Below, piece by piece: positions 33,001 to 42,000 of a DNA stretch of 64,000 bases. A program made the position numbers. Source of the stretch: Microcystaceae cyanobacterium (GTDB lineage: Bacteria > Cyanobacteriota > Cyanobacteriia > Cyanobacteriales > Microcystaceae); the NCBI GenBank assembly GCA_041746575.1, contig JBGTGT010000098.1, forward strand, positions 64,001 to 128,000, written 5' to 3'. Position 1 is the stretch's first letter, and each line of letters starts with the position of its first letter.

Positions 33001-36000
33001 AACTGAAATATAGCGAATTTTCTAGACATAACATTTTAGGGTATATTATAATGACCCATGTTTTTGTGCTAATCGGATAGGTCGGACTAGGTAATATAAA
33101 AAACTGAGAGATTTAGGTAAGCTTAAATAGCTTATATCTTCTTCAGTAGGAGTCATGACTAATCGGCAAAACTGTCCCACTAAATAGCCTTTACTTGTCA
33201 TTTTTTGCAGAGAAGGTTCTCTAAGAAGGCGGAATAAGAAATTTTCTAATATACCTTGAAGGTTTTCTGTACCAGCAAACATTTGCTGACAAACTTTCTC
33301 TCCATATAATTTACTGACTGGATCTGTTTTTATTCGTTGTAAAACTGAGTTGGGTATTTCTGATTTAAAGAGATTTTGGGCTAGAAATAATCCAAGTAGT
33401 AAAATTCGTTCAATTCTTATTTCACTAGCTTGCTTAAAAACGAATTCCCAATTCATTTTGGGATGTAATTGAAGAAGTTCAGCTACATCACAAACCCCTT
33501 TGAGCGATCGCCACTGATCTTTCATGGCGTTAATACAAAGAATTAATAATAAATTTTCCGGCGAAAAACTGAGAATTGTTGTATTAGCAAAAGAAACAGA
33601 ATGAACAGAATTCCACCACCAATTGGAATCCATACTCAAAAAAGATTCCTGTCCCGCCAAGGTCCAATGAATTTCCAAAAAAGCAATCTTATCTTTATTC
33701 GGTTTAAACTTATAATTAAACTGAGAAGGAGAACGAAGAAATTCAGACTCTAGTTCATCCGTTATCCCATATTCTGATAAATATTCATTGTTTCTTTCTA
33801 AGATGAGTAAGGGTTGATAATCTTCTGACATTAGTAGCTCTTTGATTTTTAAAATATCCTTTTTATGAACAATAATATCTAGGTCGCTAATCTGTCGAAG
33901 TGCTAGATTTTTATAAAGTAATAAAGCCAGTACCGGTCCTTTATAGGGAATAGCAGAAATATTATGCTCCTTAAATAAATTGAGTAAATCCATTAATTCT
34001 TTGGCTAAAGATAAATTATGCTGTGCATTGCGATGAAAGAAATTCCGTAGTTGAGAAAAAATCGCCGTAGGAACGTCTTCTGGACAAATAGCATTTAAAC
34101 TATAATATAAGAGCGGCATTACTCCATGATGAGCCGATGTTTTAATCAGGTAAGACCAGTCAATTTCCTGTTTAACTAAGGTTTGAATTCGTTTTTTTGT
34201 GATTAAATCAATCTGAGTTCTGGCGCAACATAATAATAATTCGATTTCAGGGCGGGTTTTTGGAATTAGTTGGCTCGAAAAAAGTTGAAGACTAGAGAAG
34301 GTTTTCATCGCATTTTACCGATAAGATGAGGTTAAATTGGAACTTGTTAAACTATATTGTTGAGCTTGAATTTGAAACAAATGTGCGTAAGTTTTTCCGA
34401 GTTTCATGAGTTCTGCATGCGTACCATCTTCTACAATCTGTCCTTGTTCAAGAACATAAATTCGATCCGCCATTTTTACAGTTGATAAGCGATGACTAAT
34501 CAAAATCGCTGCTTGATTTTTTAAGAGTTGACGAAATCGTTTAAAGACTTCATATTCCGCCTTAGGATCTAAAGCACTGGTGGGTTCATCTAAGACAATT
34601 AGCTGAGAATCTCGCAAAAATGCTCGTGCTAAAGCAATTTTTTGCCATTGACCAATGCTCAGTTCTTCTCCCTGCTCAAACCATTTCCCCAGAACGGTAT
34701 TATAGCCTTTGGGGAGTTGATTAATCACTTCATCGGCTCCTGCATAACCGGCGGCAACGGCGATTTTTTCGGCTTCAGGGGGAATATTGATGTTGCCAAA
34801 CCAGATATTTTCCTGTACTGTGAGGTGGTATTTGGTATAGTCTTGGAAAATAACGCTAATTTCTTGTCTAAGCTCTGTCAGTCTAAATTGGCGTAGGTCA
34901 ATCCCATCAAGGGTAATATTTCCTTCTGTGGGGTCATAGAGACGACATAAGAGTTTGATTAGGGTGGTTTTACCGGAGCCATTCTCCCCAACTAAGGCAA
35001 CGATTTCCCCCGGTTGAATGGTTAAATTCACCGCTTCTAAGGCTTGTCGGCTACTGGTAGGATATTGGAAACTGACTTGATTAAAAATAATCCCTTTTTG
35101 CATGGGTTGGGGAACAGGTTTAGGATGAAGGGGATCGGCAATTTTAGGTCTCAGATCCAGAAATTCGTAGAGATTAGACAAAAATAGATTATCTGAATAA
35201 AGTCCTGCCAAATCGCCTAAGATTCCTTGAAAAGCGGACTGGATTTTCTGAAATGCTTGATGATACATGACTAATCCGCCTAGCGTAATCGTCCCTTGCA
35301 CAGTTTGATAAGCAATAAAGCCATAAACCCCAAAAACGGCAAGAGTAGAACTGATTTGACTGATTAACTGGCGCAGAGAATATTGAGTGGTGAGTTGCAG
35401 TTTTTCTCGATGCAGTTGACGGCGTAATTGACGAAAACGACGGGCAAACAGCGATCCTAACGCAAATAAACGGATTTCTTTGGCGTGCCAGTCTTGGGTT
35501 AACATCCAGTGAAAGTAATTTGCTCGTCTTTCGGTTGTTGTCTTTTGTCGTTGCCAACGATACACTTGACCGGCGTATTTTAAACGCACGAGAATATTTG
35601 GGATAACCGCTACAATGACAATGGCAATAATCCCCCAGTGTAAAGATAGGAGTAAGCTAGCGATCGCTACTAACGAAACACTATTTTGAGCAATTTGAAC
35701 CAATTTATTGAGAACCTGATTGGGACGAAAGGAAGCTTCTGATTGAGCGCGGTGTAGGGTATCGTAGTATTTAGCATTTTCGTAATATTCCAAATCCACT
35801 TCAATAGACTTAGCGTGAAGCAGTCCATACATATAGTCCGAAACCAACTGAGATTGAATTTCATCGACCAATTTAGTCAAAAAACTGCATAAATTACTGA
35901 TTACCGTCACAGCACCTGCGAAACTAATGAGGGTAAGAACTGTTTGAAAAGCTGAAGCTTTGTTTGGAGCCGTAATACCTATATTAACCGCGTCGACCAC

Positions 36001-39000: not shown

Positions 39001-42000
39001 TTTTGACCAATTTTTTCTTTGAGTTGATGTCTAGCAAAATTAATAAAGTGAAGATAAAAATCTTCAAAAGGGAGAGTATTATTATTTCTCTTTTTAATAA
39101 TTTCCTCTTTCTCATTATAGATAGTTTCCTGAAAAGATACAGATATAAACTCTAAAAGCTCATCAAGAGTTTTCAGCCAATTTGGGATAGTTAAGTTCTC
39201 TACACAATCTTGATAAGTAATCGCATTTCTAACATCTGTTAATTCAAGATTAGACCAAGCTAAGCGACGTCTAAATAGACTCCAATTTCCATTTGTTACC
39301 ACTTGGCACCATTTTTCAATAATAAAATCTGAATTCTTTTGGATTGATTTTTTATTAGTATCTATTATTGATCTATGGGTATTCAGAATTTCATTCAAAG
39401 ATTGGCTGTTTGCAAAAATATGCAAAGTTTCTTCGTAAGATAACATTTTTTTCTCCTTGTATTTTTCTAAAAAATTCTAACTTGTAAATCCGATAAATCA
39501 TCAGCTAGTTACATACATAGCCAATATTTTTATGATAAGAAGAACTAGCTATTGAGTATTGTCTAACATATATAATTGTTTGTGCTTGCACAGAATATCG
39601 TGTCCATTAGAGAATCATCCCCAATAATTCCGCAACCAGAAACTTCTACACTATATGTTAAGCTTGATAAGGACTGAAGATAAATAGATAAACTAGGGAT
39701 AAAAGGATTAGGTAAAATCACAAATATTTTATCAGTTTTTTCTTCAAAAATCTTGATAAAAATATTTTGCGAAAGTTCAAGAGTTAGATAAGCTTTTATT
39801 GTTTTTAGTGGCTCTCGAATTAGCCGATCTTTTAAATCTCTATTTCTCCAACAATTAGTAATTAATTGTATAGCATGGTTACTATCTACTACAGTATTTC
39901 GTTGCTGATCCAAAACCCAGCGAGCAACATCCTCATAAGTCATCCCTAAAGCGGCTTGTAATTGCTCTTCAGACATTCCCTCATAAGGATTACAAGGTAA
40001 CACCATATAAATCGTATCTTCTGTTTCCTCAAGTACCTGAATCTCAAGGTCTTCTGGTAATTTTTGGTCTAATTCTTGTTCAATTACTGCTTTAGGATTT
40101 GCTAATAACTCCTGTTTAAAGTCTTCATCTTTTAAAGCACGAGTAATCAGATGAATTTCTAAATCTTTGCGAGTTTGTAAAGCTAACTGAGAATTTGGTT
40201 TAAACTGAAAAGACCATAGGGGTAAGTTGGGGTTCATGCTTTCATGAGTATTCATGGTAAAATCTCCTAAAATTTAGTGAAGTTGTTTGCGTTTTTTGAG
40301 AATTTTATTTCCGGCGAAAATAGAGCCAATTACCATTAAGCCAAAGATAGAAGAAGGTTCAGGAATACAAATTGTCTTATCGTCTTGTATATCATCTGAT
40401 GTGAAATCAGTAACCCCTAAGATTTTCAGAGGTTTGCCATTTTGTCCTCGACAATAATAGACTTTATCGCCATCTCCGATATCTTCTTCCTCAAATGCTC
40501 CTCTTTGAGCAAAACAAGTGAACGCAAATTCTTCAAGTGTAAAGCCCTGAGTTGCATAGGCCAATGGATGACTAAATACCAGCATTGCTATTGTAGATAA
40601 GAGAAAGAATCGATAATTATTGCGAATATGACGAATGACTAACATAATAAAAACCATCCCTTTTTTTGCTCACCGTCAATCGCTGATAAAGGAACTCGAA
40701 TATATCGAGCCATATTCCCTGCACCACCGATAATGACTTTCCCTTCGTATTCTACCCACGCATGGGCTGACATTTTCCCTTTTGGATGTCGGGTAAACCC
40801 AATACAAAGGTCAGGTGAATAACCCCGTTCTTCTAATAGCAATTGAGTCGCTAATGCACGTGCTAAACATCTAATTTTTCGTACATAGTGACTCGCAGTT
40901 CTCACTGTCCATAACACCCTATCTATCTCCACAGAAGCTTGCTCTGCATCGTATAATTTAGGGTTAGACGGAAAGACTTTCGCTAAAAGAAAACGTAACC
41001 TTTGAAAAGGTAAAAACTTCAGTCCGACTCGAATACTTCCTAGTAAAATAAACGCCTTAATCAGCAACAATTTTTCCGAGAAAGTGAGTTGTAGAAACTT
41101 AAGTAGCCTTTTCATGTTCAATGAGTCTTGGTGAATCGCTTCTACTTATTACTCGGAAACAGTCACTGACTTTGTGACGCCTTCCGTTAAAGTTGTTACA
41201 AAACTCAACAATTTATAGCCGACAGAATAACAAAACAACCCCTGCAAAAGACGTTGCTAAGTAGGGGAGGAACAAGCAATCATTAAAAATCAAAGAAAAT
41301 ACCGTCTTTTGCCACTGATGAAGTATTTGATTGATGGTAGGGGTGCAAGGTTTGCGCCCAAAGTGCAAGGTTTGCGCCCAAAATGCAAGGTTTACGCTAA
41401 TTATTAATGATTGTATTTAAGCTTTTTAAAAGAGTTTCGAGGGGAATTGCCCAACTATATTGACTCATCTCTTGTTTTTCCGTTAAGGATGCCCGTGTTC
41501 CGTCTGTAAACACATAAGGATTCCCCCACAGCGGATATTTATGAATGCCGTTAATGCCAATAATTTCGCCAAATTGATTAAATAGCGCACCACCGCTCAT
41601 GCCTTTTCGTACCGTACTCGTATAGCCAATTTGATAACCTCCCGCAAAGGGTTTAGGACTCCATTGACTGATAATTCCCGGATTGAGGACGAATTGCCCC
41701 CTAGAATCTCCATCATCCTCTACGGGAAACCCTGCCGCAAATACCGGTTCACCCCTTTGTGGTTGACTTGAAACGAATAAAGACGCAACCGAATAGGAGA
41801 GAGGACTGGTAAAAGTGACTAGGGCTAAATCTTGATCTCGAAAATTAACGTTTTTTAGGACATTTGCCGGATGAACTTGACCGTCGGGGGTGACGATTCG
41901 ATAATTTTGTTGAGGTTCACCATAAATCATAACATGACGATTTGTTACGACCATATAACGGTTACCCCTTTGTTGAATAATAATCCCTGATCCCCACGTT

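Follow-up and report, generated by a model that had tools for sequence, protein, structure and literature searches.

A conserved cyanobacterial lanthipeptide-type gene cluster with a tandem NHLP leader, a LanM synthetase and a lasso-type B2 peptidase

LanM synthetases of class II lanthipeptide systems recognize folded NHLP leaders, as described in the available part of PMC12537861 for OspA/OspM (landornamide) and DprE/DprM, in which a folded NHLP leader read by LanM precedes variable cores. The DprE precursors end in Gly-Gly and cluster with a C39 transporter (PMC12537861, in part). The ProcM/SyncM enzymes of the prochlorosins carry the LCCG motif and serve hypervariable cores behind a conserved leader with one enzyme family. 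This CCG zinc site has been linked to LanM promiscuity, and in the data set of PMC10027976, as far as the accessible text goes, CCG LanMs are paired with Nif11 leaders, and it is the CHG LanMs that occur with NHLP leaders. Two NHLP-type units in one polypeptide are found in the fused NHLP-Burk pairs (TIGR03795) of Delftia and Acidovorax, in which two complete precursors from a cyclodehydratase (TOMM) system are joined, read as a two-peptide product (Haft 2010, PMC2887384, in part). Lasso split-B systems comprise B1 (a PqqD-like RRE), B2, the C cyclase and the D exporter, and B2 needs the RRE for full proteolysis according to the accessible portion of a 2023 review (PMC10885120). In the psm lasso cluster the gene for PsmN lies between psmB2 and psmD, and mutation of an Asp pair abolishes PsmN activity (PMC6993621, in part).

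The locus compared here with these systems lies in a window of 64,000 nucleotides from a Microcystaceae cyanobacterium (GenBank assembly GCA_041746575.1, contig JBGTGT010000098.1, positions 64,001 to 128,000). Its features, numbered along the window, are as follows.

40639..41115, minus strand: B2 peptidase gene, lasso-type, transglutaminase-fold, C96-like cysteine peptidase, about 158 aa
40274..40657, minus strand: PEP-CTERM ORF, 127 aa, secreted, between B2 and the precursor
39563-40255, minus strand: precursor ORF, whole, 230 aa
39884..40255, minus strand: precursor residues 1-124, leader module 1, with the LPLWS[YF] motif, NHLP domain 1 and linker
39701..39883, minus strand: precursor residues 125-185, leader module 2, NHLP domain 2
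39563..39700, minus strand: precursor residues 186-230 and stop, junction and Cys/Ser/Thr core
36174..39446, minus strand: LanM class II lanthipeptide synthetase with a CCG-type zinc site
34315..36183, minus strand: ABC exporter, permease and ATPase, with no C39 peptidase domain
33046..34308, minus strand: NTP_transf_5 nucleotidyltransferase-fold protein, PsmN-like, PF14907

ORF positions and strand agreed with the preliminary description when checked against the ORF listing. The longest B2 ORF (40639-41121) starts from a TTG at 41121; because homologues begin MKRL, the ATG at 41115, which was the end coordinate given earlier, is the likely start. The exporter gene overlaps the LanM gene by 10 nt. 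The PEP-CTERM ORF at 40274-40657, absent from the preliminary description, scored 21 bits against TIGR02595 (cut-off 16), shares 19 nt with B2 and stops 18 nt short of the precursor. The gap between B2 and precursor is about 50-60 bp in most other genome loci (e.g. L033 and L035), and the insertion is specific to this locus; two exosortases are encoded in the host genome.

The claim that the NHLP leader occurs twice in tandem was borne out. Pfam NHase_alpha matched a single stretch of the precursor, as before, and NCBIfam TIGR03793 matched two. The whole precursor scored 108.6 bits, above the curated cut-off of 50.9; domain 1 (residues 28-101) scored 83.3 bits (E 8e-24, residues 1-110 scanned alone), and domain 2 (129-183) 30 bits (E 3.5e-7, residues 111-230 scanned alone), a significant match that lies under the curated cut-off. 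The two halves aligned with each other by BLASTP at E 4e-12 with 24/75 identities, and a profile built from the family itself matched domain 2 at 126-185 (E 7e-19). The precursor also reached 41.2 bits with TIGR03795 (cut-off 41), far below its TIGR03793 score; here, unlike in the NHLP-Burk pairs, two leader domains stand before a single core.

The precursor family holds at least 180 clusters at 90% identity, and two-domain NHLP precursors account for 116 of the top 150 cluster representatives. The frequency of double leaders, which had been named as a gap, is therefore high, and the rarity previously implied did not hold. NHLP proteins with two and even four domains occur in varied gene contexts, some two-domain precursors sitting with ordinary C39 exporters. 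It had been suggested that the second repeat could be a relic of duplication that has decayed and lost its function, and the score of domain 2 alone, below the TIGR03793 cut-off, fits that view. This is contradicted by the conservation data and appears highly improbable: two NHLP domains are retained in all of the 120 homologues listed, W136 and E172 of domain 2 are invariant in the homologue alignment, domain 2 is predicted by AF2 to form a three-helix bundle (pLDDT 80-91), and it co-varies with LanM, as described below.

Conservation follows a steep gradient. Mean pairwise identity among 10 loci was 81% for module 1 (residues 28-101), 71% for the ABC exporter, 65% for B2, 52% for LanM, 45% for NTP_transf_5, 39% for module 2 and 20% for the core. 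Module 1 is thus more conserved than any enzyme of the cluster, being nearly invariant among 44 homologues, and the core is hypervariable. The fraction of identical codons at the synonymous level was 0.62 in module 1, against 0.48-0.58 in neighbouring genes; the synonymous codons of module 1 have diverged about as much as those of its neighbours, and the constraint therefore acts on the protein. Judged by these sequences, the leader is bipartite, with a strongly constrained distal module 1 and a variable proximal module 2.

The two modules also differ in the partners with which they vary. Partial Mantel tests over the 10 loci, which are related to one another, gave r 0.77 (p 1e-4) for module 1 with B2 controlling for LanM and r 0.01 for module 1 with LanM controlling for B2; for module 2 the values were r 0.66 (p 0.0013) with LanM controlling for B2 and r 0.26 (p 0.15) with B2 controlling for LanM. 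Tests of this kind are known to err on the liberal side. B2 adjoins the 5' end of the precursor and LanM its 3' end; adjacency together with recombination at the conserved linker could give the same co-variation without functional pairing, so that physical linkage could explain the pattern as well as function does. Such recombination could let clusters trade halves, one made up of B2 and module 1 and the other of module 2, core and LanM. The proposal of two leaders for two partners accordingly stands in part: the modules do co-vary with different proteins, but the second partner suggested by these patterns is the B2 peptidase rather than a second tailoring enzyme.

Both NHLP domains might instead make up one composite folded leader, a pseudo-dimer like the two repeats of nitrile hydratase alpha. 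The entire leader would then be recognized by LanM as well as by the peptidase, labour would not be divided between the domains, and their unequal conservation would stem from structural roles alone. The family profile matches nitrile hydratase alpha twice, domain 2 at 52-106 and domain 1 at 125-186, and the ancestral fold therefore already holds two repeats; the commonness of two- and four-domain NHLP proteins in varied contexts points the same way. The order of best matches is, however, reversed relative to the precursor. The AF2 model of the precursor (overall confidence low, pTM 0.45) has two separate three-helix bundles and a disordered core, and packing between the bundles is unsupported by it. 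As the partial Mantel pattern also sets the modules apart, we regard a composite leader as rather unlikely.

In the tail SVEVSG...YIC the core has 3 Cys, as given in the preliminary description, but is 29 rather than 30 residues long and has 6 rather than 7 Ser/Thr. In family cores, as parsed in 76 of the 120 listed homologues, the medians are 24.5 aa in length, 3 Cys and 6 Ser/Thr, and 74 of the 76 have at least one Cys. The family junction, hydrophobic-x3-G-[S/A/G], was found in 76 of the 120 listed homologues and an ELEAVAG-like motif in 5; its hydrophobic residues are spaced as in a double-glycine leader. The junction here, SVEVSG|CG, deviates from the family motif, and the Gly-Gly leader end typical of TIGR03793 is not present at VSG|CG.

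The LanM matched DUF4135 (E 1.3e-106) and LANC_like (E 3.7e-63) and scored 808.6 bits with TIGR03897 (cut-off 304). TIGR03793 and TIGR03897 are both above cut-off, as for NHLP class II systems. The motifs SWCHG and LCCG, which we take to be the zinc-ligand motifs of the LanM cyclase, are present here and in 9/10 LanMs of the family, with WSHG/LCNG instead in locus L036. Those definitions agree with the available part of PMC10027976, and the pairing of a CCG LanM with an NHLP leader departs from the pattern given there. Relative to the ProcM/SyncM systems, the host genome has a single precursor. LanM, tandem NHLP leader and Cys/Ser/Thr core are all present as first described, which supports a cluster of class II lanthipeptide type with a predicted thioether-bridged product. 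By description it is set apart from OspA and DprE by its two NHLP domains and N-terminal motif, the family junction, the C39-less exporter and the syntenic lasso-type B2; the Gly-Gly end and C39 transporter of DprE are both missing here.

The ABC exporter (ABC_tran E 4e-35) had no PF03412 (Peptidase_C39) match in the Pfam search, in line with the earlier reading. None of the listed NCBIfam ABC families matched it above cut-off, with 223 bits against 853 for the C39 peptidase-ABC exporter TIGR03796. The nucleotidyltransferase assignment was likewise reproduced (PF14907 E 1.1e-57); its D142 and D144 did not vary across 9 orthologues. Its model (pLDDT 76.8) weakly resembles LnuA (Foldseek E 3.8e-3, TMt 0.69) and ANT(2'')-Ia (5cfs/4xje, TMt 0.65), with no match at E <= 0.001. 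PsmN, which we assume to belong to PF14907, has been reported to have an ANT(2'')-type nucleotidyltransferase-like fold, and the invariant aspartates here correspond to its Asp pair. The set of B2, nucleotidyltransferase and ABC genes resembles psmB2-psmN-psmD (PMC6993621, in part).

The lasso-type transglutaminase-like peptidase reported in the cluster was found again: B2 matched PF13471 (Transglut_core3, E 2.2e-20) and scored 109 bits with NF033537 lasso_biosyn_B2 (cut-off 33), and the gene is syntenic. All 10 orthologues compared keep Cys85 and His120; no invariant Asp was seen after the catalytic His, and no invariant third catalytic residue. In a tree, 21 cassette B2 sequences formed one branch (support 100/100) nested among cyanobacterial PqqD-B2-Asn-synthase lasso loci; Asn_synthase is present in 16/28 other cyanobacterial B2 loci. 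Unlike in lasso systems, the substrate is of the NHLP/LanM kind, no Asn_synthase lasso cyclase was found among the 8 ORFs of the locus or the 95 scanned ORFs of 9 related loci, and the host genome, which is 99.78% complete and holds one B2 only, gave no PF05402 match for a PqqD-type partner. A PqqD-like B1, paired with B2, was found in one of the 9 related genome loci (Microcoleus L035).

The gene order B2, precursor, LanM, usually followed by the ABC exporter and NTP_transf_5, is common to many cyanobacteria. The first three genes are present in 9/9 species-genome loci in addition to this one, NTP_transf_5 in 8/9 and the ABC gene in 6/9. B2 lies upstream of the precursor in 15/17 metagenome contigs, the other 2 having less than 140 nt of upstream sequence, and LanM downstream in 9/17, the other 8 ending at most 717 nt from the precursor. 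B2 is therefore directly upstream of the precursor in all 25 loci with enough sequence (10/10 genome, 15/15 metagenome). Two other double-NHLP/LanM clusters are without B2, one of them (L041) encoding a C39 exporter, so that double leaders can do without B2.

This synteny also bears on a rival view, in which B2, ABC and NTP_transf_5 make up a general-purpose export or immunity module with no more than a linkage to the cluster, and a C39 peptidase-transporter encoded elsewhere cuts off the leader. Such a peptidase would cut at G-[S/A/G] of the double-glycine-like junction, and C39 domains are encoded on contigs C44 and C122 of the host genome. B2-ABC pairs, nearly orthologous, stand beside glycosyltransferase or epimerase genes in 4/28 other cyanobacterial B2 loci, where the 1.5 kb around them showed no peptide precursor, and B2 showed no invariant third catalytic residue. 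Against these points are the position of B2 in 25/25 loci, the single clade of cassette B2 genes, the invariant Cys and His and the co-variation of module 1 with B2; the PqqD-B2 pair in L035 suggests that a leader-peptidase system was the ancestor. Mere linkage is, in our view, improbable.

We prefer to read the locus as a class II lanthipeptide cluster, conserved among cyanobacteria, whose bipartite leader is recognized by LanM at the proximal NHLP domain and by B2 at the distal module; we consider the case for this reading evenly balanced. In it an NHLP/LanM maturation unit would be fused to genes for processing and export that descend from lasso-peptide systems, namely those of the B2 peptidase, a plain ABC exporter and the PsmN-like nucleotidyltransferase. 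The CCG-type LanM would dock on the proximal NHLP domain and then dehydrate and cyclize the core. B2, with no RRE partner, would find its docking site in the precursor itself, on the invariant distal module, and remove the leader, the ABC protein would export the product, and NTP_transf_5 may add a further modification or protect the producer. From sequence patterns, leader removal by B2 is inferred and a two-leader division of labour is plausible. Points against this model are the lack of an invariant third catalytic residue in B2, the double-glycine-like junction and the C39 domains on other contigs, as well as the B2-less double-NHLP/LanM clusters, the B2-ABC pairs without a precursor and the deviant junction SVEVSG|CG. 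More tentatively, and as a doubtful though possible refinement, the invariant distal module may be a substrate-borne docking domain that replaces a PqqD-type protein, with the proximal NHLP domain as the handle for LanM; in that case the leader would act as an adaptor with two sockets, of which one serves maturation and the other cleavage and export.

The literature search found no published description of such a two-domain-leader lanthipeptide cluster with a lasso-type B2, and the arrangement, which recurs in many cyanobacteria, appears to be undescribed so far. The cluster is real and conserved, and new as a variant among known kinds of system. Tandem NHLP leaders are common and, as far as the literature search reached, unmentioned in current family descriptions. 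RiPP enzymes locate their substrates through leader peptides, and structural work on long folded NHLP leaders is recent; the cassette is a natural system for probing separate partners of two folded leader domains. The B2 family, thought to be lasso-specific and partner-dependent, seems to have been taken up a single time by a lanthipeptide pathway that lacks the partner. The hypervariable Cys-rich cores, a large set that is mostly of metagenomic origin and follows a near-invariant tag, can serve genome mining and leader-guided engineering. Should tandem and even fourfold NHLP leaders generally devote a separate domain to each partner, the building of RiPP pathways would have a general rule that can be engineered.

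Six genes, the precursor gene among them, follow one another head to tail on the window's minus strand, the successive gaps being -19, 18, 116, -10 and 6 nt:

40639-41115/41121, minus strand, lasso-type transglutaminase-fold (B2) peptidase of about 158 aa (PF13471; NF033537, 109 bits against a cut-off of 33)
40274-40657, minus strand, PEP-CTERM protein of 127 aa (TIGR02595, 21 bits against a cut-off of 16)
39563-40255, minus strand, precursor of 230 aa with two stretches of the nitrile-hydratase-like leader (NHLP; TIGR03793)
36174-39446, minus strand, LanM of 1090 aa (TIGR03897, 808 bits)
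34315-36183, minus strand, ABC exporter of 622 aa (ABC_tran), without a C39 domain
33046-34308, minus strand, NTP_transf_5 protein of 420 aa (PF14907, E 1.1e-57)

The PEP-CTERM ORF begins with a signal-peptide-like sequence, ends in a PEP-CTERM segment and is inserted between the B2 and precursor genes, overlapping the former by 19 nt, whereas in most of the related loci examined these two genes are separated by about 50-60 bp. The host genome carries two exosortase genes, and no paralogue of the PEP-CTERM ORF was found in it. The upstream genes for a trypsin-like peptidase (41397-42221) and a COP23 protein were dropped as cluster members, being not conserved in nine related loci. A promoter and terminator scan was uninformative (41 promoter-like sites against 33.5 expected).

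The tandem NHLP leader claimed for this precursor in the preliminary description was borne out. TIGR03793 yields two stretches, and the two halves of the protein can be aligned with each other (BLASTP E 4e-12, 24/75 identical). When each half is scanned by itself, the first scores 83 bits (residues 28-101) and the second 30 bits (residues 129-183), the latter match being significant (E 3.5e-7) yet under the curated cut-off. An AlphaFold2 model based on 44 homologues contains two three-helix bundles (residues 29-62 and 125-157, pLDDT up to about 90), joined by two linker helices and followed by a disordered tail, with an overall pTM of only 0.45. A Foldseek search with this model gave no match at E <= 0.001 (the top one was the NHLP NMR structure 8tb1, E 0.8) and is uninformative on domain packing. 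A profile of the precursor family matches the alpha subunit of nitrile hydratase in the PDB (e.g. 7qop_A) twice, domain 2 at residues 52-106 and domain 1 at residues 125-186, so that two NHLP-like repeats are already present in the parent enzyme; the order of the best matches is reversed relative to the precursor.

A protein database search restricted to lengths of 126-403 aa yielded 350 candidates, among them at least 180 clusters with E <= 0.001. The 120 family members listed span 185-365 aa and share 45-64% identity with the window precursor. An HMM made from the domains of the family itself finds two NHLP domains in every one of the 120, which contradicts the earlier caution that the second repeat could be a decayed duplication. 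In a 44-member alignment the distal part of the leader (residues 1-124, module 1) is nearly invariant; within it lie the N-terminal motif LPLWS[YF]Q and a linker with the sequence G-M-T-Y-E-D-V-A-x-W. Within NHLP domain 2, the proximal module 2, only W136 and E172 are invariant, and the tail is hypervariable. A crude leader-core junction pattern (three hydrophobic residues followed by G/A and next by G/S/A/T/C) was found in 76 of the 120 listed members. Median values for the cores behind it are 24.5 residues, 3 Cys and 6 Ser/Thr, and 74/76 contain at least one Cys. The window junction (SVEVSG, then CG) is atypical for the family, and the window proteins are the most divergent of the ten genome loci compared. 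A search for shorter homologues gave six matches, four truncated module 1 fragments and two canonical single-NHLP precursors; this query turned up no stand-alone module 1 gene. The protein database attaches PF27793 to all homologues; this family was rejected as a model of the double architecture because ordinary single-NHLP precursors of 107-111 aa bear it too.

Three family members of 332-365 aa (P0004, P0038 and P0145) continue from the double leader through a short Cys-containing stretch into a Peptidase_S74-type domain that starts at SDRNLK. The database records of P0004 and P0038 list PF13884, and P0145 is assigned by sequence resemblance only. Domains of this type are self-cleaving intramolecular chaperones, and their presence hints at core release at the C-terminal side by autoproteolysis. 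Tandem precursor genes were also observed, three double-NHLP copies upstream of one LanM at L032:9977-12542 and two at L052:167-2002.

A scan of species-representative genomes gave nine loci, in which 95 of the 133 called ORFs, those nearest the precursor, were scanned. The hosts are Okeania, Nostochopsis, Nostoc sp. 106C, Nostoc minutum, Microcoleus, Amazonocrinis, Roholtiella, a Phormidiaceae MAG and Floridaenema. B2, precursor and LanM occur together at all nine loci, NTP_transf_5 at eight (none was seen in the scanned part of L032) and the ABC exporter at six. Local HMMs applied to 17 metagenome contigs placed B2 immediately before the precursor in 15 (the remaining two have less than 140 nt upstream) and LanM downstream in nine, the remaining eight ending 0-717 nt past the precursor. 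The distribution of the cassette is patchy, since 20 of 401 cyanobacterial genomes sampled had any NHLP match and 20 genomes of the family to which the window belongs had none. That absence and the low G+C content of the LanM/precursor stretch (0.30-0.34 at 36001-40000; most other 2-kb bins of the window lie near 0.40) would both fit horizontal acquisition.

Conservation is graded along the cluster. Averaged over pairs of the 10 genome loci, unless fewer are given, identity is 81% for NHLP domain 1 (minimum 70%), 73% for the linker, 71% for ABC (7 loci), 68% for precursor residues 1-27, 65% for B2, 52% for LanM, 45% for NTP_transf_5 (9 loci), 39% for NHLP domain 2 and 20% for the precursor tail, which makes the distal leader module the most conserved element of the cluster. 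The fraction of identical residues encoded by the same codon (module 1, 0.62; B2, 0.58; ABC, 0.54; LanM, 0.52; domain 2, 0.48) indicates that selection on the protein, and not recent copying, keeps module 1 conserved. Among the distance matrices, the closest agreement is that of module 1 with B2 (Spearman 0.85) and of module 2 with LanM (0.80). With the substantial caveats that only ten, related loci were available and that the test is known as liberal, partial Mantel tests linked module 1 to B2 when controlling for LanM (r 0.77, p 1e-4) and not to LanM when controlling for B2 (r 0.01, p 0.47), and module 2 to LanM when controlling for B2 (r 0.66, p 0.0013) and not to B2 when controlling for LanM (r 0.26, p 0.15). 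Recombination at the conserved linker could mimic this pattern, because B2 borders the precursor gene at its 5' end and LanM at its 3' end. An alternative is a composite leader with no division of labour between its NHLP domains; given the separate partial correlations of the two modules, we regard it as rather unlikely. Under a division of labour, LanM would dock on or read the proximal NHLP domain, and B2 would bind the invariant distal module and then cleave the leader off.

Cys85 and His120 of B2 are invariant in 10 orthologues, and no invariant Asp was found C-terminal to His120. A PDB sequence search with B2 gave no relative, and complex prediction of precursor plus B2 (score 0.00) made no call for or against interaction. 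According to the sections of a 2023 review that treat these proteases (PMC10885120), transglutaminase-fold (C96) enzymes serve lasso peptides and C39 enzymes lanthipeptides, and full lasso proteolysis requires a recognition element (RRE). The RRE is missing here: the host genome, 99.78% complete, has one B2 copy and no match to PqqD, the RRE partner of lasso B2. Only one of the nine species-genome loci, L035, has a PqqD gene, and a phmmer search with it over the small ORFs of the nine loci and the window matched only L035 itself. This gene (L035:9169-9438, Microcoleus sp. C2D2) lies directly upstream of B2 and may be a relic of a lasso-type ancestor; IS1 transposase fragments flank the L035 cluster. 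B2 genes occur in 37 of the 401 cyanobacterial genomes sampled, and no NHLP domain lies within 1.5 kb of B2 at any of 29 other loci fetched. Pfam scans of 28 of these (105/140 ORFs) found an adjacent or fused PqqD at 18 and an Asn-synthetase-like gene at 16, the canonical lasso layout. A maximum-likelihood tree was built from 45 B2 sequences, midpoint-rooted for drawing only and omitting broken, partial or fused rows (L079, L088, L090, L092, L091 and partial metagenome copies). In it the 21 sequences of NHLP cassettes group as a single branch (support 100/100) within an unresolved group alongside canonical lasso B2 genes. At four of the 28 loci (L065, L066, L068 and L072) a glycosyltransferase or epimerase gene is followed by B2 and an ABC gene nearly orthologous to that of the window; within 1.5 kb neither PqqD nor a precursor was seen, and their B2 genes form a clade of their own (support 100/99). 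A less probable alternative to B2 is leader cleavage by a C39 transporter encoded elsewhere in the genome.

LanM carries the motifs SWCHG and LCCG in the window and in 9/10 family members. The L036 enzyme (L036:11243-14509, Amazonocrinis nigriterrae CENA67) has WSHG and LCNG in place of WCHG and LCCG, and so lacks two of three presumed zinc-binding cysteines; judged from these motifs, it may dehydrate without cyclising. The CCG motif is linked to substrate-tolerant LanMs in the portion of PMC10027976 that concerns it, where the data set pairs Nif11 leaders with CCG LanMs and NHLP leaders with CHG LanMs. The window cassette differs from that pairing in joining a CCG LanM to an NHLP leader.

The D-x-D motif of NTP_transf_5 is invariant across the orthologues aligned. 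Its model (pLDDT 76.8, pTM 0.76) bears a weak likeness to LnuA, MenT1 and ANT(2'')-Ia, none at E <= 0.001, and a PDB sequence search gave no relative. In the psm lasso cluster, as outlined in the relevant part of PMC6993621, psmB2 and psmD flank the nucleotidyltransferase gene psmN; PsmN, modelled on ANT(2''), is required for hexose addition onto phosphorylated serine, and mutation of its Asp pair removes its activity. NTP_transf_5 is compared with PsmN by gene setting and D-x-D motif, membership of PsmN in PF14907 being only assumed. The nucleotidyltransferase would act in peptide tailoring or producer protection. The ABC protein, which would export the product, scores too low for the cut-offs of all NCBIfam ABC families listed, NHLP exporter families included.

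Multiple NHLP domains also occur elsewhere. An exhaustive HMMER search with residues 1-125 gave 2873 representatives at E <= 0.001, of which 408 have E <= 1e-10 and 25 have E <= 1e-30. The best 150 of the 2873 have two NHLP domains in 116 cases, four in 4 and one in 30, a ranking biased to multi-domain proteins because domain scores add up. The proteins with four consecutive domains are P0130, P0144, P0148 and P0173 (230-406 aa). At the loci fetched from a phylum sample, 6/34 NHLP ORFs, from five genomes, have two domains. Two of the six lie inside other LanM clusters, one also with WelO5-like, GNAT, glycosyl- and sulfotransferase genes, the other with a PhyH oxygenase and a C39 exporter. Another two of the six, the double-NHLP proteins at L042:9628-10344 and L043:9899-10576, have a Trp-rich hydrophobic segment after each domain; their genes stand among short-chain dehydrogenase and GMC oxidoreductase genes, and no RiPP enzyme was seen nearby. 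Fused NHLP-Burk gene pairs in Delftia and Acidovorax are mentioned in the pertinent passage of Haft et al. 2010 (PMC2887384). No description of tandem NHLP leaders or of the cassette was found in the literature searched, mostly outside subscription journals and excluding supplements.

The double leader is real, and more general than the preliminary description supposed. The cassette is assembled from known kinds of parts and is of good interest for RiPP researchers.
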